In this document: piece by piece, positions 4,200 to 45,335 of the stretch | Layout: the number at the start of each line of letters is the position of its first letter | Position numbering within the stretch: the first letter of the stretch is position 1 | DNA from: an uncultured Planctomycetia bacterium | Lineage (GTDB): Bacteria > Omnitrophota > Gorgyraeia > Duberdicusellales > 4484-171 | DNA: 64,000 bases | Assembly: GCA_964629655.1 (NCBI GenBank) | Contig: CAZVQU010000002.1 | Coordinates: 396,878 to 460,877, forward strand | Direction of reading: 5' to 3' | The notes under the pieces: model-generated | Told to the model about the DNA's origin: nothing | Database searches by the model: none | The model's input: the letters and a program-made list of their open reading frames with translations, nothing else | Made by a program: the position numbers and the translations under genes

Positions 4200-7100
4200 T
4201 TATTGTTCAATATACTCTTCTACAACATCTTCAGTAAGGCCCGGTGTGCCGCCTTGGATAATACCGGGTTCTGGCTCCTCGCTTTCAACAGGTTTTGGCG
4301 TGTTTTCAACAGGTTCTTGTTCCAGGGCTTCCCCGCCTTCGCCACCTGCTGATTCCAACCAACTAGTAACTATCGGCTCATCGCTAGTCCTGGTTAATAT
4401 CTCCTGGCTCACATCAACCAAGGCCTTAATCTCCAAAGTCTTATTCTTGATATAATCCACATTCGTAGACTGACCCGTGGACAGCTCATACATCTTCTCT
4501 ATCTTAACACCCTGGCCCTCGTTTATCGCCTTAAGTTTTTGTGAAGTCACCGCTAATTGATCGTAAATAGCCTTCACAGTTGTATCGGTAAGTTCCTTCA
4601 TTTTTGAACTTAATGACGCCAACTCGCCCATACTGCCCATAATCTCGCTGATAATCGAATTGACACGGTCGACGCTATCGGTAAGCGTCTCCATCTTGGA
4701 GGTGTCGATATTAGTCAACTGAGCCATCGTAGAGGTGGCTGTGTTAGCGATAGACTCAAGGTCTGCGGAGATGACCTCAATATTTATACCGTCAAGAGTA
4801 CCATTTGTCTTTTCCTGACAAACAATGGTATGCTCGCCTCTTCCCCAGGCAAATGTCACATCGTATGCATAAATTCCTGTTCCCGAGGAAATCTCAGTCA
4901 TCGCTGCCTCATTTATCCGTGTTGCATTAGCAGCGTCGTAGACGCTGATAACCGGACTAGTACCAGTGTCGGTCTTATACCTGACGCTCAAGGTGCCGTT
5001 AGAACGAATATGACTCTCCTGATTAAGGATGCGCGAGGTGCTGGTCAGAGAAATCCTGGAAGCAATAGTCTCTCCTGAGCTTAAATCTTCTCCGCCGATT
5101 ATGCTAATCGTATCTGCAACCCCTTCGGTTACGGCATCTTCAATCACCTCGGTCTGAGTGGCTACAAGCTCTGCGGTATCGTTCTTTATCGCGGTAACTG
5201 ATTCAATAAGAGATTCCTGAACGTCCTCGGTTCCGCCAGCAACTGCATTCTCTATTGTGGAAACCGAATCTGTTAATTGTGCGGCTGTGTTAGTAAAGAA
5301 CTCATATTGGAGTATCTCTGAACCTACATCTATGTTGGCACTGGAAGCATAACCATTATCTCTATATTCAATCTCTAACACTGCCGGATAAACATAACCG
5401 GCCTCAAATTCAGTATCGGTTAGTGTAAAGTTATACATACCACTGGCAGAGACACTTGCGGTAACGGTATCTCTGACAGTCTCTCCATCGGTTTCATAGA
5501 TTGTCAAGGATGCAGGCCCTAAGTCTGATCTTTGTTCAGCTGTTGTTCCTACAAGCTTTCCTTTTCTCTGCAACGAACCAATAGCTGACAAAGTATCGAC
5601 AGCCGGACTAAAACTATAGGTCAACACCGACTCCCAAGTAACCTGGGCAGAGGCTTGGTTCTCGAGATAACAGGTGACACTATAAGTACCACCACCGTTG
5701 ACCGGTGCAGTCCAGGTAGCGGTGTTATCAATGTACTCGTTAACTGTAAAGTATGTGGTATAAGTGCTGTAGGGATATGCACTGACCCTTTCTATAGGAG
5801 AGACTAACCCCGCAGCTGACCATCCTGTTGAAGACGGTTCACTGGCCCCCACTTCCGTCAAGTTGCCCAGCGTATCATAATCCAAAACCTTAAATTGGAC
5901 CGTGGCATAACTGATGGTAAATGACTCGTCTGTTTCGTCATTTACCGTTGAGTCATTGACATCCGAAATCCGCACCTTAACCGCACTGTCTGCCTTAGGT
6001 GGGTCTACCGCTATCTTAGGATCAGGCAGAGTCCAATTATATGCATTTAGATTAGGCGTAGCAGCTATGACTGGGTTCCACGTATCACCGTCATCTAAGG
6101 TGTATTCTATTTTGACAGTGGTAATAGTTCCTCTTGTTGTCCAGTTAATTGAATGCGGTGATTTTGCTATCCAATCCTCTCCTCCATTGGGAACAAGAAT
6201 CTCGAATCCTCCCTTGATCCTAAAGAAACCGTCAGTGTCATCCGTAACACTAGTATCACCGGCATCGGTAATGCGTATTGCCAGTGTCTGGCCGGTCAAA
6301 GCAGCTTCAGGAATAGTCCAGTCATAAGAACCATCATTATCCTCGCCAGTAGCAATAATTCTCGAGGTAACAAAGCTATCATTGGAATAACTAATCATTA
6401 GATTGCTGATAGACAAACCCATCCAGCTCCAGGTAATCTCTACAGTATCACCCAAGACATACTCCTCGCCCCCTGCCGGAGCAGTTATTAGGATTATCGG
6501 CTCAGGAATAATCGTAAAATTCTCATCTGTGACATCCAAGACATTAGGCCTGCTCCCGTCAACAATCTTGAACCTTATATACGGTGAAGGGTTATCCGGT
6601 ATCTGCCAGATAGATTCTCCATCATTAGCTTCGCCTGAAGCTTCTGCCGGACTTTCCCAGTTGCTACCACCATCAACAGAATAGTAAAATACCAAATCAT
6701 CACTGACAGCGCCAACAGAAGTCCAGTGAACAATAGCAAAATCGTCAACTGCCCATTCTTCTCCTCCATTAGGCTGAGTAATGGTAATTACCGGTAAAGC
6801 AATAGTAAAGACAGCTCCCGAGGCATCAGTGGTCGAGGAACGATTAGCGTCAGTAATACGTACCAGCGTTTGTGCCTTGGCAGTAAGGAATCCGGCATCA
6901 GAAGGAACGGTCCAATCATATGTGCCATCATTGGCTTCACCGGTGGCTATCTCGACCCAGTTATCTCCATTATCTATGCTGTATTCTAGAGTCAAATTAT
7001 TGCTGATTAAGCCACTGTTATCAGTCCAGGTAATCTCATGGTCTGTACCCATAATCCAACTCTCTCCGCCGTTAGGCGCGGTAATGGTAAGTACCGGCGT

Positions 7101-10100
7101 AGGCAAGATCGAGAAGTTGGCCGCTGACTTAATCGTGCTGGCAGTGCGTCCGGTATCGGTAATCCTCAGTCTCACTGTAGTATAAAGATACTCGGGGATA
7201 GTCCAACTAAGAGTTGTCAGCTCATTATTTACATTATCAGCAATGGTGTGGATGTTCTCCTCGGTAAGAAAGTTATCATTAGAATACTCTATGATCAAAT
7301 CATCTGCCAAAGCACCTTCGCTACTCCAGCTAATCCACTCTGAATCTCCTACTGTCCATGTCTCTCCACCGTTAGGTGCAACCAGCGTAAACGTCGGTGC
7401 AGTAATGGCGAATACACCGGGAGAAACATCCTGTGGCGTATCAGCCCGTCCCATATCGGTAATTCTTATCTTGCAGGTTCCGGCAGCTGCACCGGGATCA
7501 GGAACCTCCCAGGGGTAAACACCGTCATTGTCCTCATTCTGAGTAACCATACTCCAGCTTCCGCCGCCATCAGTACTATATTGGATTCTGATATTGTTGG
7601 CAGCGACTGAACCTACTGATGTCCAAGTAATATCATGGTCAGTGCCCATTCTCCATTGCTCCCCACCGACGGGTGAGGTTACAGTAACGGTCGGTGAGGC
7701 AATAGCTAAGACGGCATCGGAAGTATCTGTTGTCGCTATGCGGTCACCGTCATACACCTTCACCTGCACAGTTTCCGAGGTATCATCAGGAATGGTCCAA
7801 GGATAAACACCATCATTAGCCTGATTCTGAGTAATAGTTGTCCAATCTGTGCCATTCTTAGAATACTTCAGCACAAGACTACCATCATGCACAGAGCCAT
7901 TTGTACCTACCGATGTCCAGGTAATATCATGGGCAGTGCCGACAATCCAAGACTCAGCACCATTAGGTGCGGTCAAAGTAAGAGAAGGTTCAACGATATT
8001 GAACACAGCATCGGAAACATCAGTAGTAGTAGGCCTGAGTGGATCGGTAATCCTGATTAAAGCTGCAGCTGTTGCACTATCCTCAACTGTCCAAGTATAG
8101 GTACCTAAAGCAGCAGTTACTCCAGTAGTAATTTCGGTCCAATCTGTGCCGTTATTAAGAGAGTATTCTATAGTCAATGGATCTACTGCGCCTGTCTTTG
8201 TCCAAGTAATTGCATAATCACCAGTAGCATACCAATCCTCTGCTCCATTAGGTGAGGTTAATGTTACCTCCGGTAACTCAATCTGAAAATAATCAGCAGA
8301 TATTCCTATAACATCTTCATATCCGGACTCATTATCGCTAATCCTAATCTTAGCTGTATTAGTAACATCTTCGGGCACATTAAGCCAATTAAACGAACCA
8401 TCATTAACTGTGTCACTAGTAATACTATTCGTATCGTCGACAAAGTCATCCTTAGAATACTCGATCTTTAATCCATCATCGGCAACTTCATCACCGTCAG
8501 TACTCCATTGAATCTCATAAGCATCAGCAACGGTTACCAGTTCTCCACCGTTAGGCTGAATAATATTAATACGTGGCCGAGAAAGAATAGTAAAGTTATT
8601 GTCAGAGTCATCTGTAACAGCATTCCTTTCATTATCAGTAATACGTACCTTAACTGTTGTTGACTCATCATCAGGTATAGTCCAGGTGTAACTATTTACT
8701 GCTTGTTCAGCTGCCGGAGTGCCGGCTGTCGGCTCTGGGTCAATAAACTTACGTCTCTCATAGTGGGCTGTGATTTCATCAGCACTAAGGGCCCGGTTGT
8801 AGACAGTTAGTCCGTCCAATTTTCCTGCCAGATACGTATCCGAATCACTCCTCTTAAAAGAATATAAAGCCTGTGAGGATGTTGCAATTGGGCTACTCCA
8901 AGCTTCACTAGCGACCTCACTGCCATCCTTGTAGATTTTTGCATACGTGCCATCTGTTACCCAAGCTAAATGAACCCATTGATTAGTTCCAATAGGAGTT
9001 GAAGTTTCTGCTCGCTTGGCTGAATTAATCCAAAACTCTAAATACCCATCAGAAGTTATATCACATGCAATCTGATCTTCACTCGCCCATGCATGCAATG
9101 TGCCTACGTTAGTGCTGCTCGGATATGAGGTAATATAAACCCATTGTGTATTAGTGGTATATGTTTCACCTGAAAAAAGATTATTTGCTACAGTCATATA
9201 ATCACTTGTGCCATCAAAAGAAAGTACGCTACCAGTAGAGAATGTGGTAGGATCAGTGTCTGCATCCCAGGTTGCACCGGTGATGGTACCAGTATTTCCC
9301 TGTCTTGAGGAGTCAGCTGCAGTTGTGCCGCTACCCTCATCCAAGTTCCAGACACCAATTAAGCCGTTTCCAATATCATAGTGTTCTCTTATCTTCTCAG
9401 CTGTAAGCACATTGCTATGCAAACGCAATTCATCGATTCTACCACCGCAATAATCATCATTGGCTTCGCCTACTCTAAGAGCGGTGGTATCAACTCCTGA
9501 ACTTGTAGTCACAGCAACATGATTCCAACCAGCAGATAAGTCTTGTGAGCTTGAATCAGCATTAACGTAGATAGTCGGAGAAGTAAATCCGGTTGCGGTA
9601 ATCGCTCCCGAAGCTATTGATATATATATTGTATCATCGACTAATTCTAAAATTCCATCATCGCTATTATCATTATTCACCCAGAATTCCACTGTCTTTG
9701 TATCTGCGCTGATATCGCCGACATCTGTATAGGCATCGGTATCGTTAAAGACTAATGAACCTCCTAATTTGCCGGTTGACCAGTCTGCTCCTGACACAGG
9801 CGAATCTGTTATATGGTGCTGGGTTGCGTCTGAGTCATTGAACGTTCCGTCGTTACCTTGCCCTGAACTATCTGAAATCACAGTCTGGTCAGTTACATCT
9901 GTTTCGTCAAAGCTATAGAGTGCAACCAAGTCGGTTTCATCACTAAATACTCCATTATAATGCTCAGTTACTTCACTACCACTTAAAGCACGAGTGTAGA
10001 TGCGGACTTCGTCAATGGAGCCGGGAAAAGGTATAGATGGCGGGGCTGTAGTCGCATGCGCCCCTATGACAGCTGAATAGGTGTTACCGGTTACGCTTTG

Positions 10101-28100: not shown

Positions 28101-31100
28101 ATCACCGAAGAAAAAGCTAGTTCCCAGCACAGTCAGTGCTGAAGTAGTATCAGTATGGGTCTGGGTGACATACTGGCCATTGTAGTAGATACGGCAAACA
28201 TCAGTTGCTGTATCATCCCAGGTAAATCTTAAGTGGACCCAGCCATTAGCCTTCCAAAGAGAATCATCAGTCTCGGTAATAGTGACTGAAGACTGATTGC
28301 CTGCTCCTTTGATGCCGAATTCCAAAGTGGCCTCATCTGTATCATCATAGACCCTGGCCCAGATGGCATTGGCTGTACCTGAAGCAGCTGAGCCAAAGAG
28401 ATATTTGGCCTCGGTCTGGGCAGCGGCAAAATCATAATTAGGTCGGTACCAAAATTCGATTGTCCCCTTAGACCAGTCAGACATAATATTAGCTGAAGTT
28501 ATAGCCAAGTTCTCAGCGTCATCCTTAAGGTTAAAGCCGGTGCCGCGCTGGGCAGTTGCAGTAGTGATATTAGTCTCAACTGCTTCTGAAGCTGTAGCAT
28601 CTCTATTAGCTGTACCTTGGGCGTTATCTACTGTTGTGCCAGTTGTCTCATCCAAACGATAATGAGCTAAGATGTGATTTGCCGATGCGCTACTTGGATA
28701 GGCCTCACGAGCCATAAATATTGGTTTATACTTAGTCTGCCCTGAGCCGTCTAAACCAAATAAAAACTTATTATCCTGAGTACGAACCCGGACTTCATAA
28801 GAACCCTCTCCTTCATTAAAACCATCGGCATCGGCATCGCCGCGGGCTGCAGTCTCAACAGTACCAGTAACTATAGATACGGTACCGGGATCCTGATAAT
28901 CAGTGATTTCTCCGGTAGCAGTTGCAATCAGCTCAATAAGCTGAGTATCGTAATAGGTGGCGGTACTTCTTCCTGCCGCCGGAGTTGAAGGATGATACCC
29001 GCTCATGCCGGTAGCCACGTAATCGGTTGCATCATCATCAACGCTACGGGCTTCGGTGCCGGCCAGCAGCTTCTCATATTTTATCCGTTTGATAATCTTA
29101 CCAGTTGAGTAAATAGTCCACTCCTCAGTTACAGTGGCCTCACTGGCAAGAGAAAATTTATTCTCAACCCTGGCCCGGGTAGAATTAGCCTCTAAGAGTT
29201 TTAAGACAGATGACGAATCAACCTGCAGGGCTGAATCCTGGTCTAATTCGGTTAAAAGTTCTGTGGCTGAGCCGTAGTTTGTACTCCAGGCGCTGCCGGT
29301 TCCTTTGTAAAACTCAGAAACACCAGCGTCAGCTTCTTTAAAGACCAGCTTAAAATCTGAAGTGGTTAGCCCGGCGGTTTGAATAGTAATCGTTCCTGAA
29401 GCCTGGGTTGCTGATAAAACCGGATCAATAACGATATCGCCTGCTTTTCCGTCTTCATAGAACCAGACCCGGCAGGTAGAAGCCTTGTGAGGATTGTTTT
29501 CATTAGTGCCGGTTAAGCGCTGAGCCCTGGTTTTTTTCCTTTTTTTGCTTCTTTCGCTCTTCTTAAAATCTTTCCAATCTATTAAGACATTATCAAACTT
29601 TTCTCTGGAAACTTCTCCCTCAACGATTTCTTGTTTCGCGGCGCGTAAGAATCTCTTTACCTTTCTCTTGATCCGACGACGGACATTAGCATTGTCCTTC
29701 TTAATCAAGCCTTTTTTGTTAAAAACCGTATCCCAACGCACACGCTTCTTTGCTGAGCCTAAAGCTTGGTTATCACCTTCAACTGAGAACTTATTGTAGT
29801 ATTTTTCTCCGTCAAAACCTAATTGTGCAGTTACAGTGCCCTGAGACGATTTATTGTAAATGGTAACCGTTCCGTTATCATTTTCGCTATAGGATAATTT
29901 GCCTTTCTTAGGTTCTACATCTTCCCACTGCCAGGGGAACGTACCCATTTTCTGTATATAAAACCAGGAGTTTTTGACCTTTTTCTGGAAACCGTTTCCT
30001 GCATCCTCAAGCAAAGCAATACCCTTTCTAGTAAAGACATATTTCTGGACACCGTTTAATGATTTTAATGAAACCTCGTAACGCCTAGGAGAGACTTCTT
30101 CGAATATATAAGGGACAAATTTTCCTGCCTCGTTTTTAAGATAAAAATCCTCAGGTGCGCTCTGGGAATTATATACAATCACGCCAAAACCCTGAGCTGA
30201 GGCTACTCCCGGCTCAAAATCAGGCTGAGTTACTGATTCTTCAAGAACTCCTTCTTGGCTGACTACATCTTCCGGGCTGATTGCTTCTTGATCTGTGCCC
30301 TCTTCTGTCTCTGCCAGAGCTGCTGCTTGATCTGGTATAGTATTAACAATAAGGATATGCCCGTCTTTAGTGGTTATGCCGCAACGGTTTGTAGCCGTGA
30401 CAAAGATATTTGCGGTTACATCTACATCCTCAGGTATTTTATACTCAACAGCATAAATGTCATCACCGTCGTCATCATACATTGGAGTTACACCCTCGCC
30501 GCCAAAAGGTGCAAAGTTACAGCTAACTGAAACAATATCGGAATTATTATCGCCATCAGCCGAATTATCCCATTTGATTACCATTGAATCTCCGGCTATG
30601 TATACCCCCTGAGTGCCTGTGGCTCCGGAACAATCGACCTTAACCGAGCTCACCTTTGGAGCTATGGAATACTCTAATTTAAGTTCCTCAAGCTTAGGGG
30701 TGGCAGTAGTGTTACCGGTAGAAAGATTGACCCGCAGTGACAATTCTTTACCAACACTAAAATCATCCATCCCGGTATAGGTCATACCACTTTCACAACT
30801 TTCTTTCCAGTTCAATCCTCCGTCTGCTGAGATATCCATACTTATGGCTTGCGACTTACTCGCACTCTTAAGAGTATCACTTGCCAGTTTTATTGTCGGA
30901 GTAATTGCTGTAATATTACAGGCAGTAGAAATAGGCTCAGTGGTATATCTGCCTAATGAGGAATAGGCACCTTCAGTTGCTTTTAATACCACATCTCCAT
31001 TATCGGAAACTATAGTTTCAAAAAACTCTGCTAATCTAATATTTTCTTGATCTGCTGATGAGCTGACATAAGGCTCGGTTTCAACATATTTGCGCACTCT

Positions 31101-32459
31101 TAAGAAATCATAATAAGCAACACTGCCTTCCCCAGCCTCTAAGCCAACATATCCCTGTTTTAATCCGTCTTTGTTGGTGTAACTTATTTCTGCTTCGGAG
31201 ACCGAGGCTTCTGAATATCGTTCAAACTTTAAGTCATCTTCTTTAGCACTGACTTTATAGTTATATACAGTTCTGGCTGAAATAGGCTTAGCTTGGTTTA
31301 CCTTTACAATGCCACCTATTGCCAGACAGTGTTCAGCGCCTTCATAAACTGAGGAATAAGCAACTTGCTCAAGGCCTAGGTCATCGTCTCTGATAATCAG
31401 CTGGTTCTCAAAACCAATCTCGGATTTTGCCTGGTATTCGATTATGCCGTCTTTAAACTGATAGTCTTTAGATCTAATCACTGTTCCGTTCAGCATTAAT
31501 TGGGAATTAAGGAGTTCATAACCTCCGCCTAAGCCTATATCGGCTTGCCAAACTTCCTGGTCCAATTCATCCTGGGAAAAATCATCAAAGAAATCAAAGA
31601 CATCTTTGCCGCTGGATAAACTTTTAGCTACGGAATTGCCATAATACATATATATAGGTAAGCCCTTAACAGGTATCTGGGGAAGCTTTACCCAAAAAGA
31701 AGCTACTTGGTTTGGACTTTTGCCGGTAACGCCCTCTAAAAGATAAGGCAGAATGGTCTCTCCGTCAGCGGCAGTAAAACGAATATCTCCGAAATCAGCC
31801 TTAGCCTCACCTTGACAACCGACCTCGGCTCCGGAAGTATTAGCTGATTGGCCAACTGATATAGGTATTTGATAGTTAAATAATTCTTCTTCTGAAGGAT
31901 TGGTAATACGAAGAAATTTTCTAAATTTAAATCCTGAAAGTTCTGGCTCGCCAAAACTTCCGCCGGCTCCGGATACATCGGTATAGGCAACTTTGATCTC
32001 AAAAAGTTGACTATCCAGACCAAGGGTTACCCGCCATTTAAGTCGCTTCCCGCTCTTGACTAAATCAAAAGGTACTCCATAGACCATTTGGGAATAACTC
32101 TTCCCGTTGTCAGTACTAAGCTCTAAGGTTACTTGGCCCTTAAATTCCCATGTAGCAGTAAGGCTTTTTATCTTGCTAGCAGTCCTAACAGCCTTAATGA
32201 GTTCATGGATACCATCTGCGGAAAGTTCAGGTAAAGAATAATCCCCTTTCCCATCTGTACGCCAAACCAAAGGAGATTTATGAGTAACTACCTCGGTTGT
32301 CTGTTGCTCAGAAGAACTAGCACTGCCAATAGCAAGAGACAAAGAAAGCCCTACTAAAAGAGAAAGAGTAACCAGCAGGGCTACTCTCCTTTTCGTTTTA
32401 CTTTGCTTTCTTTGTTTTGCTTTTTCGTAATTCACTTTACACCTTTTTTTAAACTCCAA
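4200..32459 (-). CDS. giant multidomain secreted or surface protein, 9,419 aa, encoded by a single 28,260-nt ORF. The exact start is uncertain: the track start corresponds to TTG, and an in-frame GTG with an AGGTG-like motif lies about 8 codons in.
   Basis: No stop codon occurs in one frame for 28.26 kb, which is impossible by chance at this AT content. N-terminal basic stretch plus hydrophobic helix (RRVALLVTLSLLVGLSLSLAIGSASS). DUF2341-like, LamG-like, glycine-rich repeat and Ig-like domain signatures recur throughout. Confidence 0.9.
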   Translation of the reverse strand: MEFKKRCKVNYEKAKQRKQSKTKRRVALLVTLSLLVGLSLSLAIGSASSSEQQTTEVVTHKSPLVWRTDGKGDYSLPELSADGIHELIKAVRTASKIKSLTATWEFKGQVTLELSTDNGKSYSQMVYGVPFDLVKSGKRLKWRVTLGLDSQLFEIKVAYTDVSGAGGSFGEPELSGFKFRKFLRITNPSEEELFNYQIPISVGQSANTSGAEVGCQGEAKADFGDIRFTAADGETILPYLLEGVTGKSPNQVASFWVKLPQIPVKGLPIYMYYGNSVAKSLSSGKDVFDFFDDFSQDELDQEVWQADIGLGGGYELLNSQLMLNGTVIRSKDYQFKDGIIEYQAKSEIGFENQLIIRDDDLGLEQVAYSSVYEGAEHCLAIGGIVKVNQAKPISARTVYNYKVSAKEDDLKFERYSEASVSEAEISYTNKDGLKQGYVGLEAGEGSVAYYDFLRVRKYVETEPYVSSSADQENIRLAEFFETIVSDNGDVVLKATEGAYSSLGRYTTEPISTACNITAITPTIKLASDTLKSASKSQAISMDISADGGLNWKESCESGMTYTGMDDFSVGKELSLRVNLSTGNTTATPKLEELKLEYSIAPKVSSVKVDCSGATGTQGVYIAGDSMVIKWDNSADGDNNSDIVSVSCNFAPFGGEGVTPMYDDDGDDIYAVEYKIPEDVDVTANIFVTATNRCGITTKDGHILIVNTIPDQAAALAETEEGTDQEAISPEDVVSQEGVLEESVTQPDFEPGVASAQGFGVIVYNSQSAPEDFYLKNEAGKFVPYIFEEVSPRRYEVSLKSLNGVQKYVFTRKGIALLEDAGNGFQKKVKNSWFYIQKMGTFPWQWEDVEPKKGKLSYSENDNGTVTIYNKSSQGTVTAQLGFDGEKYYNKFSVEGDNQALGSAKKRVRWDTVFNKKGLIKKDNANVRRRIKRKVKRFLRAAKQEIVEGEVSREKFDNVLIDWKDFKKSERSKKRKKTRAQRLTGTNENNPHKASTCRVWFYEDGKAGDIVIDPVLSATQASGTITIQTAGLTTSDFKLVFKEADAGVSEFYKGTGSAWSTNYGSATELLTELDQDSALQVDSSSVLKLLEANSTRARVENKFSLASEATVTEEWTIYSTGKIIKRIKYEKLLAGTEARSVDDDATDYVATGMSGYHPSTPAAGRSTATYYDTQLIELIATATGEITDYQDPGTVSIVTGTVETAARGDADADGFNEGEGSYEVRVRTQDNKFLFGLDGSGQTKYKPIFMAREAYPSSASANHILAHYRLDETTGTTVDNAQGTANRDATASEAVETNITTATAQRGTGFNLKDDAENLAITSANIMSDWSKGTIEFWYRPNYDFAAAQTEAKYLFGSAASGTANAIWARVYDDTDEATLEFGIKGAGNQSSVTITETDDSLWKANGWVHLRFTWDDTATDVCRIYYNGQYVTQTHTDTTSALTVLGTSFFFGDYKTSGTDNAEGIFDEIYIYNAAILPFGAYHSDFAGSYAKPHSDLTLYWNGDGSGIQYSGAGTGSVTSSGSFASALVGNGFLNDASDEYVQVASASNIVAATGSLSLWLKSSDSSPAAQYIFYNNDNLALSFDNQGNLVFELEGNNDIETTGDYYDSEWHHVRLTWDYTNDVYKIYVDGREQGSETASLTAPSLATNIFFSAKDASGTNNFEGLIDEVYITSSASTPQVQTAYGDPIKMIQLSVDGTAKTQGSEYNCSRIHSASDYIVQYLSDVAADVNISMTDDTSSTTISAPITLTDDTVYRDLTISGTTLTVDSYNKAGGAGQITIIATNLTLDAGAVISANGTGYPGGFSDTDNGNGYGPGEGEGRGNNGSALISGSGGGYGGKGGKGYSGIEPEYGKPYGSIKEPTDLGSGGGGTYSNNRLGGAGGGSLKIVVLDTFTLNGSITANGVAGTNNGGASSQRATGGGSGGSIWIDAGALDGTGSVISNGGDGGNDNWDGGGGGGGRIAIYYTADTSSLATLSTYGGSGRDNAERAGSGTIFKKDDGQTNGDLTTSNNNNSGRDTPFVDGTYTFDSITVQEDAHITLSASDTVTTDNFTISDATVENNDGSLTVNTAYTMAGSRHIQSTDATFDGSAATISFTSGTNYWDISKDVASDPIFTSGSISAGATLTHSDHVSTGTHLYSLILETTGDLTLASTAYINVNNLGYSGGYGDVEGSVTGNTGSGFGTGGGYGPDGEYQRGGGGGGYGGEGGITAGRSGYTGAGGIAYGSITAPVDLGSGGGGSRATNRWGGDGGGAIKLTVGGTLTVTGDITANGEDGEMNGGYGSQISAGGGSGGSIWIDADVLEGAGAVTANGGDGADDTYDGAGGAGGRIAIYYTTDDSTITPTAYGGSGIVGSQIGGAGTIYQKDAAQDGDLTVANNTGSASSADTPIPDATYTFKDFDIKDNAQVILSASDTITTANLALDTDVLLDNNDATLTINAACTLAGGRYIQSTDATFDGSSATLNATSGITYWDISKDVGTEPLFSSGGIAQGATLTHYDHTTSDSHTYSLILETTNDLIINNGAYIDVSSRGFRGGYGDTNGSLANQTGEGFGTGAGYGSNGDYDEGGGGAGYGGGGGISNGYYAANVTAGGTSYGSVTEPVDLGSGGGGVRSPNIWGGDGGGVVKLIVGGTLTVTGDITAGGGNGSINGGHSSYMSGGGGSGGSLWIDAGVLIGTGNIKADGGSGGDDNRDGAGGSGGRIAIYYTTDSFEGTVGAYGGSGRSLSQRGSAGTIYKDNGVQANGDLILDGGGTGIAYKRASGVGELSETFDNVIVKNYINYNGALTTVDLDVQASGSLGHQVHQRSEIEETYFLNITVTDDAVITGDIGVYGQGFSGGNGNPGDGIGTGAGDGGYDACYCRGGSGGGYGGIGGQGDQNSIGGSGYGSVITPNNLGSGGGGSTYRGSATPGNGGAGGGELKLTVTDTLTVAGSINADGDNGVAYYECGGGGSGGSLWIVAGTIEGSGSITANGGDGGDWEDDGGGGSGGRIAIYYTTDTFDGDLTAYGGAGGTNAQRGGVGTIYKNDGVQTNGDLILDGGANGAAYSLAPGVTAIVQLFDNVNVRNTVSYNGLLTTVDLDVESGAVFGHQLHQPSEVDKTYWLTVEVDDDAVITGEINVNDRGFAAGAGDPGDGVGTGAGAGAYSQGYDRGGNGAGHAGYGGRGYFNSTELGGSPYGSVTEPITLGSGGGDIYRQNYTPGSGGGVVKLDVTDTLTVAGSITSNGGDGGGNDEGTGGGSGGSIWIITDILDGDGVISANGGDGFDTNQDGGGGSGGRIAIYYATDNSSIVPTAYGGSGGNTAQTGSVGTIFEKDTDGQTNGDLTLYGEGTGSIVYNQAGGVQNTDQAFDNVIVKNSANYNGTLNTVDLDIQADAVLGHQMHQLSEDTETYRLEITVTDDAVITGELNVSYQGFSHGTGNPGTGIGPGGGSGEWDSTQTKGGSGGGYGGIGGRGNESSSVAGGSTYGSAIQPANLGSGGGCSEYRWNSGQLSTGSGGGELKLIVTDTLTVTGAISANGRNGGGYAEGTGGGAGGSIWIETDTLAGDGVITANGGDGRNYEDDGGGGGGGRIAIHYATADNSSIEPTAYGGAGTDNAQRGGTGTIYKKGPSHTDGELILQGGGVDSTYQLAAATGTVAGSFDNVIVRQATNYNGLLTTADLDVQAGAIFGHQMHQVSQVAKAYSLEIVVTDDAVITGDIDVNEQGFSGAPVGTPGHGVGDGGGRGSNGNVNVSACGGNYGGYGGRGYGNAIASLSTYGSYTAPIDLGSGGGATPSGTGYGGSGGGAVKLTVTDTLTVTGNITANGGNGYYNGGTSSWYAGGGGSGGSIYLTADTITGAGDITANGGRVQDDTWDGGGGGGGRIAIYYTTADTHTGALSAGGGTGYLTGQRGGVGTIFKKDTDGQTVGELILDSGGTDSTYTQAAAMDAIVADFDKFVVKNASNYNGALTTDYLEIEAGGSLGHAPNDDTKVYWLDITVSGDALITGAINVNAQGFAGGIGNPGTGEGGDGGAGGGGGNGGLTIVSGSGGGYGGPGGDGYNAEANELSGGSIYGSIKEPEDLGSGGGGTVLNDRYGGDGGGAVKLTVTGTLTVAGSITANGGAGIRDGGNASLYTGGGGSGGSIWIDADTITGSGTISANGGNAADDTWDGGGGGGGRIAIYSTENTFAGTLSAAGGSGYTTGERAGAGTIYEKDDGQTNGDLTMDNNNNVGLYTPYATGTIVFDNLTVKEDAVLDHSGGSITVGNTFTLADDGRYIHGASSTLDVSAATLTVSSGIGYFDVPEDISSEPVFSAITIPSAATLKHSANTDTHTYSLILEATGDVTVDAAGTIAVNGDGYSGVAAGDGNGSGGGRGTDSNQYASASGASYGGYGAMGSGSYGVGNVVYGSITVPVDLGSSGGGTYSTSRAGGAGGGALKLTVGGTLTVNGDITATGGNGVANGGNPTWFSSGAGSGGSVYIIAPTLEGTGNISANGGDGAVDTQWGGGGSGGRVAIYYTTDNSSIAFNSYGGRGYKTYYGAAGTVYKKTPAQTNGELIIGNNDWNSDVDTHLVDGTYTFDDITIDKKAKLRLSAGDTLTSTNLTIDNNGVLDNNAGSLTVDTTFTLDAGGRYIQEKAATLATSSAALAITSSTCYWNIHKDVTTDPTFSSVSISAGATLSHYSQYAEHVYSLILKTTGGITIPVGGYINVDNRGYRGGLGVPGTGNGPGGGAGNDGTRAVCGGGASHGGKGGDSYNSLAGNVYGSITEPVDLGSGGGGTYYNDRYGGTGGGVVKLTAGGTLSVGGNITANASAGETDGGTSSQYGAGGGSGGSIYLIADTITGSGTISTNGGNGGNDQTNDGGGGSGGRIAIYYAENTSTGGINSLGGWGYGAEYGAAGTIFLDDTDDSNLYGELRIKNNDLLTNVNVTTHLPEDNFDSSSSTINFDVVNVANDARLGIPGGYTLSVEGDVNIGTENANYDIAQILIKGSASLDLADAVPPAWYDVDWLSSQKFIINSDLIDETLADFPVLVRLDSSNSSVFGAALSTGYDILFTASDGETKLDHEIEKYIDTAGNELLIAHVEIPSISSSVDTVFYMYYENAAAGDQQNITGVWDDANYVMVQHMNQDPTSSQIIDSTDNDNDGTARGLMTSSGKGLISGKIGDCLDFDGSGDAIVIPDSASLDLVGDQYTLEAWIYVRNYSSDYRLIVAKGAPNANTNWSYFMDIRTDGRLRNDVRNTTGTAYLLENYGLARSSVTYQWHYVSAVYNGATDTLVSYIGGRQVGSRATGGTLRQTDALVTIGGYWNQANNDQNPFLGAIDEVRISSTPRSAAWLKASYYSMNDSLFVTTTTTTGSGTIVADNINIYGVDGVGASLSANGQGSIHDLGTGAGGTGSSTYGAGGGYGGAGEDSTDGGTGGTTYGSNTAPVDLGSGGGSDDGGAGGGAMVLAILNTLTVDGFLSSDGDDAANDGGGGSGGSIYAAVGSLDGAGIITAEGGAAAGEGGLGGGGRIRLTAEDGSPATFAGTMTAYDGSGATGSNDGTVSIDYICTPPTLVLPADTYAYEPVRPIFELYTTHGIDAPAQFKILLAEDVDFTTGLQTFDQTSSQTGWSGQDAASNTAYATTSSSGTHAFYTLQSNLTRDDTYYWKAYAIDPAGSAEWSKASVVRSFTVGATLTLVSPNGTESWRTRSAHDITWTHVGPVVNVKLLYAIDGSTFENVAIASTANDDSYSWTIPYLDSTTVKVRIEDVNDSGTYDESNANFTILPSILTMTSPDGTEEWTVSSDHDITFTTTGVIPNVNLHYLDIDDGSEDPYTVGSDSLQYRVPITVTNNGSTLTDYTVMVDDFDTLTLINAGKMQEDGADIRFTNAASAKLNYWIASGINTATTDIWFEADSLPGSAAETTIYLYYGSVDAHRETATLDIASGRADPEPTLVVGSATGDGSWQKILIADSIANSSPYADWTVPRHIIDEAKVRVEDSYDTGIFDVSDAVFSMVLPTLTLLTPSDAAIELDTEQEYSITWDYSGPISNLLALYYSTDSGATYPNTIATAIDHYGVDYALTDGTFSYRRPATLTNAAGQVFNDYGVQITLDTEALIAAGKMQADGDDIRFTNVSSEELSYWLQSGIDTDSTSVWVELATIPTGDTTIYMHYGNDSVSSDSSVITPPDPAEVTSVLGSEDINTSYTWTVPYDPSATAKVKVQDTFYQELIDTSADQFGLGTHSDTEVSGTGNDAGVTLGDAGGVSIGLVSAWHFNEGTGTAAADSSGSNNGTITGATWNTASEKLGAAALSFDGNDYVDSGNGASLDFGTGSFTVVAWAKSSAQTTGRIVNKGDCVGSGAYGWGISPRSSGEIWYIVGLGGTEVMNKKLGDNYDTGWHQYALVVDRASDELQGYLDAVAVASATDISAYSADTSDTTRAVTMGVGKRQSDDALVEYFTGSIDEVLIYNRALSLAEIQTLYNSGSGVESDVYSSSGTFTSRAIDTLGTEEYGTLDWNATIPAESEGAGGLISTDMSGLVSLWHLDEGGGAVAGDSKGTDDGGITGATWETSDYRVGSGALSFDGTDDYVDIGYSSGFFTQSTDQETISITAWVKPDSVDSWQAIYQLGGASNGAVLGIKNDGTVMFVTREGSTSESVTSPSALTPGEWVHLTGSKSSSDMTLYINGVEVATNPGAYTWNTGGAGNVIGHDGDKGAGFYQSTMRGTQDVDEYFDGIIDEVAVFDRALTADEILLLYTGQEVKFQLAGSDDGSSWDNFIGAEGTITDYFTTSGTDMPVSLDSKRYLKYKAYLGTGNRGYTPTLNEVKFSFTDSVEADRIFNDPSNNNFSILARPITYYTITTTTPQKVAVGWSETVTAYDEMDHVVTADSSTELTLTDTGNATFYTDDTYVTETTTYTLADGQATVYLKSNTVETLTINADDSTYDVTSNTITVASPLTLSEPNGGDEWELWTSHNIIWASDESVSDDIIVKYTTVDEEPWDGDNWDSIDTGQTASKTYNHRFELSSDISTTARIKVYSLSAIEAGIEYYDISDANFAIAAIPIMEITSPESGDERKIGYTYDITWDRTGRLYDTVDISYSSDNGSTWTLVEADVTNNGTYSWLTPDSQTAQAKVKIVESAVPANRDTNTVRQVVSDPFSITAPTVTLVAPNGDEVWVYSDEEQITWTLEGKVSNDLLLEYSKDGFASDTHTIYDGVIPTTGLVPGYGYGKKVTITNTGNMAYNYQFKLTLDTEALIAAGKMQADGDDIRFKDDTANLCSYYLVPNTIDTTDTEIWVKVPEVPAGTSYVFMYYDNSTATSGSSYDDAMTKYPEGTLSTSGMVGEWLFNDASGLTAADSSGQGNDGTISGTPSALIFDGVNDYVDLGSTNDLIGDNLQTITVSMWLKYTSAVSRYVLSLKRAAAPETLLSLVINADAGNNDDLGYLGFLTSPPAGGSHTWLTHKLGAGYNDDNWHHLVAVVDGATRTLYIDGVQRGTDSEGLQSVTGNTYSAVIGAHATTAPPSIPFPGSIDEVRIYTRALSGSEVTEHYNGVFSDETDLVALYSFDETDVTDQTVISDSSGQGNDGTFNDSDATQHHITDSPVSGADWSTGKLGGSLVFNDTDAYTDVGDISADTKTVEFWVNNDNSDDGILELVDDTIYISIASGAITATGFTSPTIYVNADSSSQDLSAGWNHVAVTTSSGVDTTALRVGEANDDYCGGRIDELRLHSNVLTAEKIREHYDIGNGLIGVWNLDEGSGTTAADSSRQGNTGTITGATWDADTDPTTFSTGSVLSFDGTSDYMTVANNLFSGETYTTNTQWVYITSYPSSTNVGTLHAWASEDQIACDITSDGYLEFWINSAKRAETSTPIGTNQWVHLAWVTDGTYAKIYKDGSEVASEAWSSPIATSSQALYSFKRSDSDTYLAGKLDGLTVYNRALSADEITAHYERRKFIDPEPTAGTPAAEQAVNSYTWTIPDDESTTVKVRITDNERNAVTDDSDNNFTILSRPRINIIQPNGGELVTVADAYEIQWSTDGDEVADDGLKIEYSKDDFVDDTNSITSDTVNDGSFNWLNVPEDVTNTAKIRISDNESGYEDVIGISADYFQIELPEVTLTSPNGAEDWYATGDYAITWTKTGAVDPLTIEYSLNNGTDWTEITTGVTAALGTYTWTVEDSATAAALIRITDPLRPTTTDVSDAVFNIVEPSLTLTAPNGAESWIVGTAHDITWTSVGTNGSVHDGSLVLKYSKNGTDWTTITQNQANDGVYPWTIPDDTSETVQVKVYDGDRIATTDTSDAVLAIASPTVTVTSPVGGEQWRMGTDHDITWTSVGSVAANNIRIQYSTDGGGSWSMVTQNEDNDGVYPWEVPDPGAAAGTCKIRITDMGRADTPQDVSPGVFAITAPTFTLVAPNGGETWTVGDSEWISWSSEGALADDLIIEYSNDNFLTEENIHTIADNVNNELTTLSWTIPEYLYTTVRLRITDTGRTASTIKSAANFSILPTPVLTITAPNGGESWIMGTDHEITWTDNSGLISNNLTLEYSIDNGDNWVEIATGEANDGTYDWTVPSDAGFLTAKAQTLVRITDANRSSTTDASGAVFTIALPVITITQPNGGEEWAVDDFAIVHWTSVGAVSDDLVFYYSVDGGSNWESPAEASGEANDGESIWQIPDNPSPYIRFKIVDGSRPNVLDVTDENFTIIPEPIILITAPAGGEEYVLGDTVEITWSWMGLSISNLMISYSNDSFVTSRIIATGEDNDGSYDWTIPEAALTGQTLAIRITDAGDTSVTDDTDGFFRIKGGFEILVPNGGEDWIAKSPHSINWTTRGTITTVKIEYTLDDGDTWNPVIAATPNLNAYNWTLPDPKIAVDPPKADSAVKVRISDVNDSTVNDETDESFTISYATVQFKVLDYDTLGNLTEVGASEPSSTGWSAAGLVSPIERVSAYPYSTYTTYFTVNEYIDNTATWTAPVNGGGTYSVTCYLENQASAQVTWESVLTYSFSPAVDTLSAIGSLQRKGKLVGTTAEQRSDLGPASLTIYETDGETVRDTVTASVSASGMYNFTLTDTEFEAGYVYPAVLEIEYRDNGYASSANIDVGSEILQYEFFTNTAAQLTDSVSTIENAVAGGTEDVQESLIESVTAIKNDTAELVATQTEVIEDAVTEGVADTISIIGGEDLSSGETIASRISLTSTSRILNQESHIRSNGTLSVRYKTDTGTSPVISVYDAANATRINEAAMTEISSGTGIYAYDVTFAWGRGEHTIVCQEKTNGTLDGINIEVISADLESIANTATSTMAQLTNIDTSKMETLTDSVDRVNSIISEIMGSMGELASLSSKMKELTDTTVKAIYDQLAVTSQKLKAINEGQGVKIEKMYELSTGQSTNVDYIKNKTLEIKALVDVSQEILTRTSDEPIVTSWLESAGGEGGEALEQEPVENTPKPVESEEPEPGIIQGGTPGLTEDVVEEYIEQ
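5950..8700 (-). repeat. tandem array of about 12-13 Ig-like beta-sandwich domains of about 90 aa in the giant protein (Kre9/KNH-like or similar; family assignment tentative)
   Basis: Repeated pattern P(N/V)GGE.W..G..H.ITW...G....L.(I/L)(E/Q)YS.DgG..W..I......NDG.Y.WT(I/V)PD.....A.(V/I)RI(T/S)D......D.SD..F.I. Plus-strand shadow ORFs 5914-8100 all show the mirrored QVISWSVPI..SPPLGA periodicity. Confidence 0.7.
8760..10600 (-). repeat. three consecutive LamG/concanavalin-A-like lectin-fold domains of about 200 aa each in the giant protein. Further LamG-like domains lie at about 27400-28600 (x2), 16540-17050 and 12330-13850 (x2).
   Basis: Each unit starts LVxxWxxDEGSGTTAADSSGQGNDGTI.GATW, has a central FDG.DDYV motif, and ends G.IDEV(R/A)(I/V)(Y/F).RALSA.EI..HY. 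This is the classic Laminin_G_3 termination motif. Confidence 0.65.
10790..15050 (-). repeat. region containing three DUF2341-like modules (about 10790-10900, 14180-14300, 14860-15050) interleaved with Ig-like and LamG domains. Additional DUF2341-like modules lie at about 31560-31950 and 17220-17620.
   Basis: Motifs (F/Y)..L.LDTEALIAAGKMQ(A/E)DG(D/A)DIRFT............W...(V/I)P......T.IY(M/L)YYGN. The nucleotide stretches 10800-10862 and 14205-14270 are almost identical (atcatc.ccgtcagc.tgcatctt.ccggcagcgattaaagcttcggtatc), and 14945-15000 is a more diverged third copy. Confidence 0.6.
17650..27150 (-). repeat. array of about 10 glycine-rich repeat units of 290-400 aa within the giant gene (predicted parallel beta-helix-like)
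   Basis: Recurring blocks LGSGGGG...GGDGGGAIKLTVGGTLTVTGDITANG...GGGSGGSIWIDA...ANGGDG..D..DGGGG.GGRIAIYY(T/A)TD...AYGGSG....GTIYKKD..QTNGDL. Five central units carry an HQ(M/L/V)HQ motif spaced 858-872 nt apart (about nt 21450, 22322, 23180, 24045). The outer units are longer. DNA identity between units is only partial. Confidence 0.8.
29520..29800 (-). other. lysine/arginine-rich low-complexity segment of about 90 aa inside the giant protein (about aa 890-980)
   Basis: Translation KKRVRWDTVFNKKGLIKKDNANVRRRIKRKVKRFLRAAKQEIVEGEVSREKFDNVLIDWKDFKKSERSKKRKKTRAQRL. The F/L-rich plus-strand shadow ORF 29545-29799 mirrors it. Confidence 0.7.
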
Positions 32460-33294: not shown

Positions 33295-33297
33295 AAT

Positions 33298-37406: not shown

Positions 37407-38056
37407 ATCAGTTCGATCTCCCCTCCCTCAAAGCTCAAAATAACTCGATCTTTTAAAATATCTTCTATCTTAAACTTATTGATCTTCATACCTTTCTTAA
37501 GAAAGTATGTTTTCTTAGTCTTGCTATCCTCAATCATTGCCACTGGATCTTTGCTCCAAGATATGCCTACTAAGTCTAATTCTCCGATCATTTCCTGCAA
37601 CTGTTTTTTTTTAACTTCCTTATTACTTTTAGTTTCCTTGAGCGCTATCGGACTAAAGATGTTCCTACGGTTAACCATTTCGAAATAATGTAAGAACGGA
37701 CGGGCCTCGGATACCTCCTTCTGCTCAGACTGCCTCCATTTCATCAACCGGCTCTTTTCGTAAACTGCTTTTATATCGGGACGGCCGAAAACAAAAGCCA
37801 CTACTGCATAGCCTAGAAGAACCACCGATAGAACAAAAAAAACTCTGTTTAAAGTCTTCAAGTTAGGGTCTCTCAAACCCTTGATTAATCTTGTCAAGGG
37901 CCGGCTTATGCCTTTGGTCAAAAAACGCCAGAAACCTTTTAGGCCGCTGAAATTTAAAAACAGCTTCTTTTTCTGTCTGAATTTTGCGACTTCGTCGCCT
38001 TTGTCTATCAGCCTTAATAGCTGTTCTTCAGGAGTAAATCCTTGTTTTGCCATCAT
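37403..38056 (-). CDS. hypothetical single-pass membrane protein (217 aa), possibly a secretin-associated inner-membrane component (PilP/GspC-like C-terminal beta domain, tentative)
   Basis: Central TM (VFFVLSVVLLGYAVVAFVF). The C-terminal KKTYFLKKGMKINKFKIEDILKDRVILSFEGGEIELI is beta-rich. 4-nt overlap with the secretin start. It is absent from the paralogous copy-2 module. Confidence 0.5.
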   Translation of the reverse strand: MMAKQGFTPEEQLLRLIDKGDEVAKFRQKKKLFLNFSGLKGFWRFLTKGISRPLTRLIKGLRDPNLKTLNRVFFVLSVVLLGYAVVAFVFGRPDIKAVYEKSRLMKWRQSEQKEVSEARPFLHYFEMVNRRNIFSPIALKETKSNKEVKKKQLQEMIGELDLVGISWSKDPVAMIEDSKTKKTYFLKKGMKINKFKIEDILKDRVILSFEGGEIELI

Positions 38057-45325: not shown

Positions 45326-45335
45326 TTTTTTATTC

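Follow-up and report, generated by a model that had tools for sequence, protein, structure and literature searches.

The giant protein encoded in the window (the whole 64-kb stretch of DNA that was analysed) most likely serves as a fibre for attachment at the cell surface. The explanation that in our view accounts best for the data as a whole, with a probability of roughly 0.6, is an adhesive surface fibre that is exported by Sec and probably displayed via an adjacent T2SS-like system. Omnitrophota are abundant, uncultured and ultra-small bacteria that are thought to live by predation or parasitism. Their giant genes have been catalogued, yet these are mostly domain-poor and hard to interpret. 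The present protein is unusually readable, in that nearly every residue falls in a module. The most informative evidence, which the sequence-only reading of this DNA had missed, lies in its conserved termini and in the secretin/T2SS-like, two-component and c-di-GMP genes that surround it.

The giant reading frame has a single terminal stop and is otherwise unbroken at exactly the coordinates given in Table 1. The calculated probability that a frame of about 9,400 codons stays open by chance is (61/64)^9419, or approximately e^-450, and the initial judgement that this is no chance frame was right: the gene is genuine and belongs to the chromosome of an Omnitrophota bacterium. The organism was placed in this phylum because the best matches of its RecG are from Omnitrophota and because the gene order at the giant locus agrees with that in Omnitrophota MAGs, which also makes the early comparison with Omnitrophota giants an apt one. 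The start of the gene is ambiguous, since the furthest upstream codon, a TTG, yields 9,419 aa, and a GTG at codon 9, the start picked by gene callers in independent assemblies, yields 9,411 aa. The protein has a mass of 981 kDa and a pI of 4.2, and consists of 13.9% Gly, 10.9% Thr, 9.2% Ser and 8.3% Asp, with 0.3% Cys. A promoter scan upstream of the gene performed no better than on shuffled sequence and gave no convincing candidate, no terminator was seen in a scan between the giant gene and the following gene for a 244-aa protein, and the 64-kb window contains no tRNA or Rfam elements.

Table 1. Features of the giant protein and its gene neighbourhood (coordinates refer to the window)
Feature	Residues (aa)	Position	Strand	Remarks
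Giant ORF		4200..32459	minus	28,260 nt, 9,419 aa from TTG
N-terminal signal	1-50	32310..32459	minus	basic n-region, then 20 hydrophobic residues; putative Sec signal (peptide or anchor)
N-module	55-724	30288..32297	minus	small beta domain, DUF2341 #1 at aa 170-300, more beta domains
Unique region	725-1263	28671..30287	minus	acidic linker ~700-760, strongly basic patch ~900-990; no Pfam match
Two LamG (Laminin_G_3)	1264-1692	27384..28670	minus	Pfam, in-house profile
Ten glycine-rich units	1705-4888	17796..27347	minus	predicted right-handed parallel beta-helix
Mosaic region	4976-7870	8850..17534	minus	DUF2341 #2-#5, six LamG (one degenerate)
Ten tandem Ig-like domains (Kre9_KNH-type)	7871-8850	5910..8849	minus	~95-100 aa each
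C-module	8851-9419	4203..5909	minus	no Pfam match
244-aa protein		3445..4179	minus	signal peptide, helical ectodomain, C-terminal TM anchor; starts 20 nt after the giant's stop
Response-regulator-GGDEF diguanylate cyclase		2255..3151	minus	conserved downstream partner; 53% identity in L024
LuxR-type response regulator		32641-33294	minus	immediately upstream
HisKA_3 histidine kinase		33298-34698	minus	upstream, next to LuxR-type regulator
Secretin module #2		34756..38056	minus	GspC-like 217-aa protein 37403-38056; secretin 35679-37406; TPR protein 34756-35682
Secretin module #1		38534..47198	minus	secretin 45336-47198; 2,263-aa protein 38534-45325

For the domain map, the protein was split into ten overlapping tiles for Pfam and NCBIfam searches, and DUF2341, LamG, Ig-like and beta-helix units were counted with in-house profiles. 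Recognisable domains were found by the HMM scan: Laminin_G_3 scored 70-161 bits in six tiles (Pfam cut-off 27.6) and DUF2341 76-86 bits (cut-off 23.4). The in-house totals are five DUF2341 and eight LamG domains, one of the latter degenerate. Both families had been assigned to the middle and C-terminal regions, where they do occur, but they are also present near the N-terminus, within the N-module and directly before the glycine-rich units. The same profiles gave 13 complete Ig-like domains, including the tandem array, and about five partial or split matches, so that the earlier figure of over 20 was an overcount. The mosaic region additionally holds a degenerate beta-helix unit (aa 5253-5523) and scattered Ig-like domains (aa 5650, 6910 and 7017), and the sole relative of the unique region is a partial Ca. 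Makaraimicrobium protein with 60% identity. The C-module appears to be built from two beta-sandwiches, a 77-residue helix, a further beta-sandwich, about 130 aa of long helices and an acidic disordered tail.

Beyond these families, the searches returned little. NCBIfam on the ten tiles gave AgmC_N and TafC only, at scores so far below threshold that no membership is claimed, and Pfam at E<=10 gave nothing credible for the C-module, aa 700-1290 or the 244-aa protein. A PDB sequence search with both halves of the protein yielded, apart from a LamG match to 4qvs, nothing but a weak one to 5hon; an N-module profile had no PDB match at E<=1, and a C-module profile matched designed coiled coils only. 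The domain order had struck the sequence-only reading as unusual. For this lineage, however, the repertoire is nothing unusual: the LamG, beta-helix unit, DUF2341 and Ig blocks recur in separate giants that are encoded in related Omnitrophota loci.

The ten glycine-rich units are 286-371 aa long and share 40-62% identity with a reference unit; the degenerate unit of the mosaic region is an eleventh. No Pfam model detects them. Structural modelling predicts a right-handed parallel beta-helix whose closest solved folds are secreted fibre adhesins, in line with the early suggestion that these repeats may form such a helix. The predicted shaft of about 3,200 aa makes up only a third of the protein. 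The repeat itself is very widespread and unannotated, occurring in more than 12,000 representative proteins, and deserves its own family model.

With respect to export, a simple Kyte-Doolittle scan showed only one TM-like segment, at aa ~24-48, which follows a very basic n-region; the 20-residue hydrophobic core is followed by small residues (AIGSASS). This single hydrophobic segment may be a Sec signal peptide or the signal-anchor proposed before. No lipobox and no prepilin motif of the type G-F-T-L-x-E was found in the giant's N-terminus. The Tat route, which was considered for the 'KRRV' at aa 23-26, was rejected, because the Arg pair varies among relatives and the residues around it fit the motif poorly.

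The two ends of the protein are conserved in a manner that its middle is not. The N-module was found with 29-58% identity in 25 genome loci, by a scan that was built on nine closer sequences because an alignment of 28 sequences lacked a sufficiently conserved block. Full-length N-modules occur only in Omnitrophota, either as a separate protein of 613-1,005 aa or fused into longer ones, and the C-module, with 36-64% identity in 12 proteins, is likewise restricted to this phylum. The conserved N- and C-modules define an Omnitrophota-specific family. Both modules and the downstream genes are present in locus L024, and split forms occur in L028 and L033; in all three loci, the gene for the 244-aa protein directly follows the gene that bears the C-module. 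An orthologue of 2,103 aa has nothing but the two termini in common with the giant protein, which argues that the middle is an exchangeable cassette: it comprises about 1,000 aa, unrelated in sequence, in L024, as compared to about 8,350 aa here. Proteins of 7,443 aa and more than 5,000 aa in relatives are built from the same blocks. The giant protein shows every feature of the family, i.e., both modules, the 244-aa protein after it, and the secretin, TPR, kinase and regulator genes before it. The N-module, the C-module and the 244-aa partner together provide a sequence signature by which the family can be found in metagenomes.

The surroundings of the gene are conserved as well. Across the phylum, a gene order recurs that consists of a GspC-like protein, secretin, TPR protein, kinase, regulator, N-module, C-module, 244-aa membrane protein and GGDEF regulator, and the LuxR-type regulator and HisKA_3 kinase keep this place in no fewer than 11 of the 30 loci that were compared (L005-L034). 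The giant gene is flanked on one side by the outer-membrane half of a T2SS-like system (a GspC-like protein, two secretins and TPR proteins) and on the other by its motor and pseudopilin half, with MshEN-GspE, GspF, GspG, I/J/K-like pseudopilins and PilM/N downstream. The genes expected for a T2SS (GspC, D, E, F, G, minor pseudopilins and L/M-like) are all represented; GspG scores 112 bits (cut-off 88.9) and several others fall below their family cut-offs. The TPR protein of secretin module #2 combines a TM segment, a coiled-coil and TPRs, and the 2,263-aa protein of module #1 has a signal peptide, a coiled-coil and the same C-terminal TPR domain.

These observations can be assembled into a working model. 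The giant protein would be exported by Sec via its one N-terminal hydrophobic signal, and the secretin/T2SS-like apparatus would help to display it on, or to release it from, the cell surface. The conserved termini, and probably also the co-transcribed 244-aa membrane protein, may act in docking or anchoring. Glycans on the surface of a host or prey cell may be the ligands of the variable LamG/DUF2341 modules, which the shaft of beta-helix and Ig domains would hold away from the producing cell. Judged roughly from the domain counts, such a fibre would be about 150-250 nm long. Expression of the giant gene could be set by the HisKA_3/LuxR pair, and secretion could be gated by c-di-GMP, with the GGDEF regulator as its source and the MshEN domain of the ATPase as its sensor. 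The cell-surface fibre or adhesin of the sequence-only reading is borne out as regards an extracytoplasmic, fibre-like multidomain protein with LamG/DUF2341, beta-helix and Ig domains; its adhesin function we only infer. A more far-reaching idea, which we put forward as a rather improbable speculation, is that the termini, the 244-aa protein, the duplicated secretin/GspC-like/TPR set and the c-di-GMP-sensing GspE constitute an uncharacterised display pathway, in which a T2SS-like machine would thread or mount megadalton fibres with a freely exchangeable middle, and a long scaffold or ruler to match would be supplied by the 2,263-aa coiled-coil/TPR paralogue. If true, giant proteins would have a novel export route in diderm bacteria, and Omnitrophota would have a general way of recognising hosts or prey. 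Orthologues with the same termini but different middles, together with the conserved cluster, yield testable hypotheses on docking, target binding and the control of display.

Among other explanations, the one that survives best is a pilus or pseudopilus tip adhesin, which would not be a free T2SS cargo but would be carried at the tip of a GspG-type (pseudo)pilus, docked on GspI/J/K-like minor pilins, and pushed out and pulled back through the secretin to catch a host cell. PilY1 and MshQ-type proteins are borne at the tips of type IV pili. Genes for DUF2341 proteins lie in type IV pilus loci, and a role as tip adhesins has been suggested for their products (PMC4858521); in the epd pilus locus of Methanococcus a DUF2341 gene is needed for transformation (PMC10133366). 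The MshE-type N-domain of the ATPase and the minor pseudopilins I/J/K encoded nearby would also suit this idea, as would the weak resemblance of the module #2 TPR protein to the secretin-associated TPR lipoproteins Tgl and PilW, and these loci are named T4aP by Seymour et al. 2023 (PMC10066038). We nevertheless consider it unlikely. The C-terminal propeller of PilY1/PilC is absent by Pfam and NCBIfam, and the model of the C-module consists of sandwiches and helices. Prepilin signals (G-F/M-T/S-L-x-E) were found neither in the six frames of the window nor in the downstream locus L001, which ends before the pilin genes of L089; the giant protein, lacking such a motif, is not a pilin-like protein. 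Furthermore, the major pilin types as GspG rather than PilA, and the ~10 kb that were examined beyond the downstream end of the window (L089) showed no PilT-type retraction ATPase. Finally, we know of no precedent for a pilus tip protein of 981 kDa.

We regard it as still less probable that the protein is a structural envelope or 'coat' protein, part of an S-layer-like surface layer or matrix rather than a specific adhesin. One LamG region does match 4qvs_A, an 'S-layer domain-containing protein' (E 1e-11), a low pI and an abundance of Thr, Ser and Gly, as seen here, typify surface-layer proteins, and the giant protein of Velamenicoccus archaeovorus has been proposed to form a coat (PMC10066038). 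However, no SLH or other cell-wall-anchoring domain was detected with Pfam or NCBIfam, an elongated beta-helix with tandem Ig domains is the architecture of a stalk and not of lattice units, and the wholesale swapping of the middle among relatives suits variable ligand binding better than a lattice. Very improbable, too, is an enzyme fibre, in which beta-helix units resembling the lyases or depolymerases of phage tailspikes would digest a prey envelope and the LamG domains would act as CBMs.

As to the assembly itself, Logan contigs from at least six runs are 100% identical to window positions 26193-36525 and 1-14179, and short-read contigs from several sequencing runs match aa 1-2,089 and aa 4,148-9,419 at 100%; according to the gene tables, the 3' contigs reach 5,271 aa into the gene. 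The contigs break at two exact repeats, the only ones of at least 31 nt within the gene (a 32-nt pair at gene nt 6238/7348 and a 52-nt pair at 11536/12421), on which the contig ends fall exactly and whose copies are, in each pair, exactly one unit apart and in frame. Since independent contigs leave aa ~2,090-4,148 uncovered, the count of beta-helix units could be off by one, in frame. A repeat-driven misassembly, or a pseudogene that is not expressed as one polypeptide, might be suspected from this gap, from short-read assemblies that end within the repeat region, and from the non-ATG start and unconvincing promoter scan, but is highly improbable, as the two repeats are shorter than typical reads (100-150 nt), the internal repeats are only 62-74% identical at the DNA level, the flanks agree across runs, a misjoin would have had to keep the frame over 28 kb, and relatives' large proteins are built from the same blocks.

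How, then, does the attachment fibre that we favour compare with known systems? Giant RTX adhesins such as LapA, SiiE and MpIBP are exported by type I secretion. The giant protein instead carries a putative N-terminal Sec-type signal; it has no HemolysinCabind match and ends in a sandwich/helical module with an acidic tail in place of a T1SS signal, and no ABC/MFP/TolC genes are found in the window. A type V autotransporter domain is likewise absent by Pfam, with no barrel in the C-terminal model. The TpsA fibre adhesins (FHA/FhaB, HMW1, EtpA, HxuA) share the right-handed parallel beta-helix shaft predicted here, but sequence identity to them is only 10-16% and the shaft is just a third of the giant; moreover, no TPS (Haemagg_act) domain was matched in aa 1-1000 and no TpsB/ShlB/Omp85-type gene occurs among the 26 neighbouring ORFs.

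The archaeal DUF2341 proteins of T4P loci, for which an analogy to PilY1 has been drawn (Makarova et al. 2016), resemble the giant in combining DUF2341 with a type IV filament cluster. These proteins and the large FhaB/DUF2341 proteins of Patescibacteria come from ultra-small episymbiotic lineages and have filament-family machinery adjacent, as is the case here. However, they are far shorter or of other architectures, whereas the giant has Omnitrophota-specific N- and C-modules and no PilY1 propeller.

Closer at hand are the giants of the phylum itself. The Archaeovorin- and Dockerin-type proteins of West-Roberts et al. 2023 (10.1101/2023.11.21.568195), for which prey adhesion was proposed, have more than 30,000 aa (genes of more than 90 kb in the Archaeovorin type), many TM helices, SecA_DEAD, and enzyme domains or dockerin/TSP3 repeats. 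The present giant shares with them the phylum, adjacent T2SS/T4P-like genes, nearby c-di-GMP components and beta-helix segments, though theirs are described as antiparallel and the model here is right-handed parallel. With 9,419 aa, one hydrophobic window, no Pfam match to dockerin or TSP3, and no Pfam or NCBIfam match in the ten tiles to SecA_DEAD, SecA preprotein-binding, GT, GH, methyltransferase, peptidase or NUDIX domains, it is neither Archaeovorin-type nor Dockerin-type.

The giants of Seymour et al. 2023 (PMC10066038) have in common with it an Omnitrophota genome, an ORF of more than 20 kb, Laminin_G_3 adhesion-type domains, a place beside an F-type ATPase/type-4-pilus-like 'symbiosis' locus, and a proposed part in cell-cell adhesion; the accessible part of that paper does not describe the N- and C-modules or the secretin/TPR/kinase/regulator synteny. 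Of the Omnitrophia giants reported there, most contain several TM helices and hardly any annotated domains. The protein described here is a further example of this already reported giant-gene class, and differs from most of its members in having a single N-terminal hydrophobic segment and modules that are resolved almost end to end.

The giant gene is real. The single ORF that the sequence-only reading had claimed at 4200-32459 was recovered at those coordinates in the ORF listing of the window, on the minus strand, with 9,419 aa, a TTG start and no stop in its translation other than the terminal one, and chance cannot account for so long an open frame. Ahead of the hydrophobic segment, just one other start is possible besides this TTG, the GTG of codon 9, which was picked by the gene callers in independent assemblies and gives 9,411 aa. 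All 27 window ORFs of at least 150 aa lie on the minus strand. The G+C content of the giant gene (42-50% vs ~40% in the flanks) fits the Gly/Ala/Asp-rich composition of the protein, which has a mass of 981 kDa, a pI of 4.2 and 0.3% Cys.

Exact look-ups of the neighbouring proteins led to Logan short-read contigs, drawn from six or more sequencing runs. On the 5′ side they match the window at 100% identity over 26193-36525, on the 3′ side over 1-14179, and according to gene tables the 3′ contigs reach 5,271 aa into the giant gene. Within it, contigs end at nt ~6,267 and ~12,444. The gene contains only two exact repeats of at least 31 nt, a 32-mer (nt 6,238/7,348) and a 52-mer (nt 11,536/12,421), with the copies of each pair separated, in frame, by exactly one repeat unit; its other internal repeats share just 62-74% DNA identity. 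Since the contig ends coincide with these exact repeats, they represent breaks in the k-mer graph and not chimeric joins. The independent contigs skip aa ~2,090-4,148, so that the number of glycine-rich units could be off by one, with the frame unchanged. Outside this stretch, contig coverage across 4.2-32.5 kb, for which a misassembly check had been proposed, revealed no chimeric join, and an artefact is among the less likely explanations of the giant.

The anatomy of the protein was mapped by Pfam on ten overlapping tiles, self-comparison, motif anchors and in-house profiles.

Coordinates of the giant's segments and of neighbouring features
Feature	Giant aa	Window position	Strand	Remarks
Giant gene	1-9419	4200-32459	minus
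Very basic n-region and 20-residue hydrophobic core	1-50			sole TM-like segment in the protein
N-module (conserved)	55-724			includes first DUF2341 (aa 170-300)
Unique region	725-1263			acidic linker, strongly basic patch
Two LamG	1264-1692
Ten glycine-rich units	1705-4888	17796-27347		286-371 aa each
Mosaic	4976-7870			four more DUF2341, six more LamG (one degenerate), degenerate eleventh glycine-rich unit, three Ig-like
Split Ig-like halves	5744-6194	~13878-15230		within mosaic
Split Ig-like halves	7118-7289	~10593-11108		within mosaic
Ten tandem Ig-like domains	7871-8850			Kre9_KNH-type
C-module (conserved)	8851-9419
244-aa membrane protein		3445-4179	minus	starts 20 nt after giant's stop
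308-aa TM/coiled-coil/TPR protein		34756-35682
Secretin modules		35679-38392; 45336-47509
279-nt identical stretch		38114-38392; 47231-47509		upstream of each secretin module
2,263-aa coiled-coil protein		38534-45325	minus
F-type ATPase operon		385-1966		continues at L089:8927-20732

Recognisable domains were found on the Pfam tiles (DUF2341, LamG), as had been anticipated, and the "over 20" Ig-like domains of the sequence-only reading came down to 13 complete units and about five partial matches with an in-house profile. For aa 725-1263, no family match was obtained. The giant has a probable Sec-type N-terminus and no further membrane segment, and it is built from fibre modules (beta-helix, Ig) and carbohydrate-binding-type modules (LamG, DUF2341). 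At two places in the mosaic, Ig-like matches are split into halves that flank or overlap a DUF2341, which suggests either nested domains or an edge of DUF2341 that resembles an Ig-like unit. The glycine-rich units, with recurring motifs that include GGGSGGSIWI, ANGGDG and GGGGxGGRIAIYY, were detected in the giant by no Pfam model. This predicted beta-helix unit is a large unannotated repeat family: 12,568 representative proteins from several phyla match it, 3,527 of them at E<=1e-30 (P0090-P0239).

The window is ordinary chromosome, with genes for a CCA/poly(A) polymerase-family nucleotidyltransferase, RecG, RsmD-like and CoaD-like proteins, PlsX, FabH/D/G/F, LeuC/D/B, Asd and TruA; tRNA and Rfam elements were sought in it and none was found. 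Among the best 120 matches, the named RecG relatives are all Omnitrophota/Omnitrophica bar one label, probably mis-binned, and for the N-terminus of the giant the best relative is in Ca. Makaraimicrobium thalassicum (Omnitrophota). In the direction of transcription, the giant gene is preceded by a first secretin, the 2,263-aa protein, which ends in a TPR domain, a GspC-like 217-aa protein, a second secretin, the 308-aa protein, and a HisKA_3 kinase with a LuxR-type regulator. It is followed by the gene for the 244-aa protein (signal peptide, helical ectodomain and C-terminal TM anchor, but no family match) and then by those for a response-regulator-GGDEF protein, a Peptidase_MA_2 protein and the ATP synthase b/delta subunit. 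Contigs that reach beyond the left end of the window carry the F-type ATPase operon; MshEN-GspE, GspF, GspG, two N-methyl pseudopilins (GspI- and GspJ-like), GspK and PilM/N are encoded within and after it. The insertions in this operon are unusual: Peptidase_MA_2 sits between subunits c and b/delta, and the MshEN-GspE ATPase between beta and epsilon (L089, the locus past the edge). GspG scores above its NCBIfam cut-off, and the MshE-type c-di-GMP-binding motif of the ATPase is above cut-off too; for GspE, F, I, J, K and C the named family is the best-scoring one for each protein, yet below cut-off, and the secretins may be of PilQ or GspD type. This arrangement matches the "symbiotic F-type ATPase/T4aP locus" of Omnitrophota described by Seymour et al. 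2023 (PMC10066038).

The secretin module is duplicated, and the two secretin genes share 79-94% DNA identity over the repeat segments found. The 279-nt stretch, 100% identical between its copies, encodes a MerR-like ORF of ~85 aa, and MerR-family genes hold the same position in two related loci (L006, L008). The 2,263-aa protein has a signal peptide followed by a coiled coil of ~2,100 aa that is rich in K/E/L/Q, and its gene contains internal repeats (~500-nt units at 39.6-43.5 kb and 6 x 87 nt at 44633-45199). Its terminal TPR domain is that of the 308-aa secretin-associated protein, and the 2,263-aa protein resembles a greatly lengthened paralogue of a TPR protein of the Tgl/PilW-like kind.

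The giant belongs to an Omnitrophota family whose gene neighbourhood, with T2SS-like, two-component and c-di-GMP parts, is conserved. Its N-terminal 1,290 aa retrieved 77 proteins. The partial Makaraimicrobium protein, at 47% identity, is the only one that aligns over the entire query; the majority of the rest are 830-1,000 aa long and correspond to aa ~1-700. In the genome scan, the full-length N-module occurred only in Omnitrophota MAGs, some few of which bear an automatic Planctomycetia label. The DUF2341 core and the next ~170 aa (giant aa ~170-470) recur in many Patescibacteria and DPANN archaea (L035-L088), which are other ultra-small episymbiotic lineages; carriers include Aenigmatarchaeota, Woesearchaeota, Micrarchaeota and Minisyncoccus archaeiphilus.

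Window proteins were compared with every ORF of 30 related loci. The order GspC-like, secretin, TPR, (kinase, regulator), N-module protein is kept in L006/L007/L021, L008, L012, L014, L016, L026, L028, L029, L030, L033 and L034, and rearranged in L020 and L023. Among the closest relatives (N-module identity 49-58% in L010-L012, L014 and L016, 43% in L015 and L017), the N-module ORF is cut off by the contig end at 1,322-2,210+ aa, which implies long proteins there too. More distant relatives encode the N-module as a protein of its own (613-1,005 aa), in several loci adjoined by a separate giant (3,457+, 5,018+ and 7,443 aa); those of L020, L022, L023 and L029 share the LamG, beta-helix unit, DUF2341 and Ig blocks of the giant in the window. 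Toxin-antitoxin pairs lie beside the N-module gene in some relatives, one nucleotidyltransferase/HEPN-like, one a RelB-like antitoxin with a HicA toxin: in L006 (12657-13342) after this gene and before the separate giant, in L008 (7802-8888) between regulator and N-module gene. This suggests that the junctions of the N-module gene are insertion hot spots.

Counterparts of the giant's C-terminal ~350 aa close the 7,443-aa protein of CP070797.1 and, in both L028 and L033, a pair of 800-860-aa proteins; L024 has one as well. In L024, L028 and L033, a homologue of the 244-aa protein directly follows the C-module-bearing genes. A 2,103-aa protein of L024 shares aa 3-724 (52%) and aa 9,081-9,382 (51%) with the giant and nothing between the two termini, and its gene is followed by the 244-aa and GGDEF genes, as at the giant.

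We propose that the giant would be exported by Sec and then displayed or released as a fibre via the secretin system dedicated to it. Docking or anchoring may fall to the conserved termini and to the 244-aa protein, which is a candidate C-module anchor or chaperone, and the variable middle may bind surface glycans of a host or prey cell. Transcription would be set by the HisKA_3/LuxR pair, and c-di-GMP made by the GGDEF regulator would gate the MshEN-GspE motor. The main weakness of this proposal is that we know of no T2SS substrate near 1 MDa. To a further reading, in which dedicated secretins form a display pathway for megadalton fibres, we give a probability of roughly 15%. The principal rival holds that the giant is either tethered or carried at the tip of a pseudopilus, in keeping with the literature that ties DUF2341 proteins to type IV pilus loci. 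A coat protein or an enzymatic fibre is less likely. From domain counts, the extended giant would roughly measure ~150-250 nm, similar to the size of ultra-small Omnitrophota cells as reported by Seymour et al. 2023 (PMC10066038).

With respect to known systems, the giant resembles TpsA adhesins in fold only, having neither TPS domain nor TpsB partner, and T1SS RTX adhesins in overall design only, lacking RTX repeats and T1SS genes; an autotransporter was rejected. It shares no defining feature with the Archaeovorin-type or Dockerin-type giants, whose >30,000 aa, many TM helices, SecA_DEAD and enzyme/dockerin domains have no counterpart here. Giant ORFs >20 kb, some with Laminin_G_3, are common in Omnitrophota according to Seymour et al. 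2023 (PMC10066038), and T2SS/T4P-like loci adjoining giant genes of the phylum were already reported (bioRxiv 10.1101/2023.11.21.568195). Compared with these published giants, as had been suggested, ours belongs to the >20-kb group in its loose definition by ORF size, adhesion domains and adjoining T2SS/T4P-like locus. The sequence-only reading of a surface fibre or adhesin was largely right but incomplete: it missed the neighbourhood and the conserved termini. The giant is a well-resolved putative adhesin of the Omnitrophota giant group, and what it adds to that group is a family with conserved termini, a cassette-like middle and a conserved regulatory and secretion neighbourhood.
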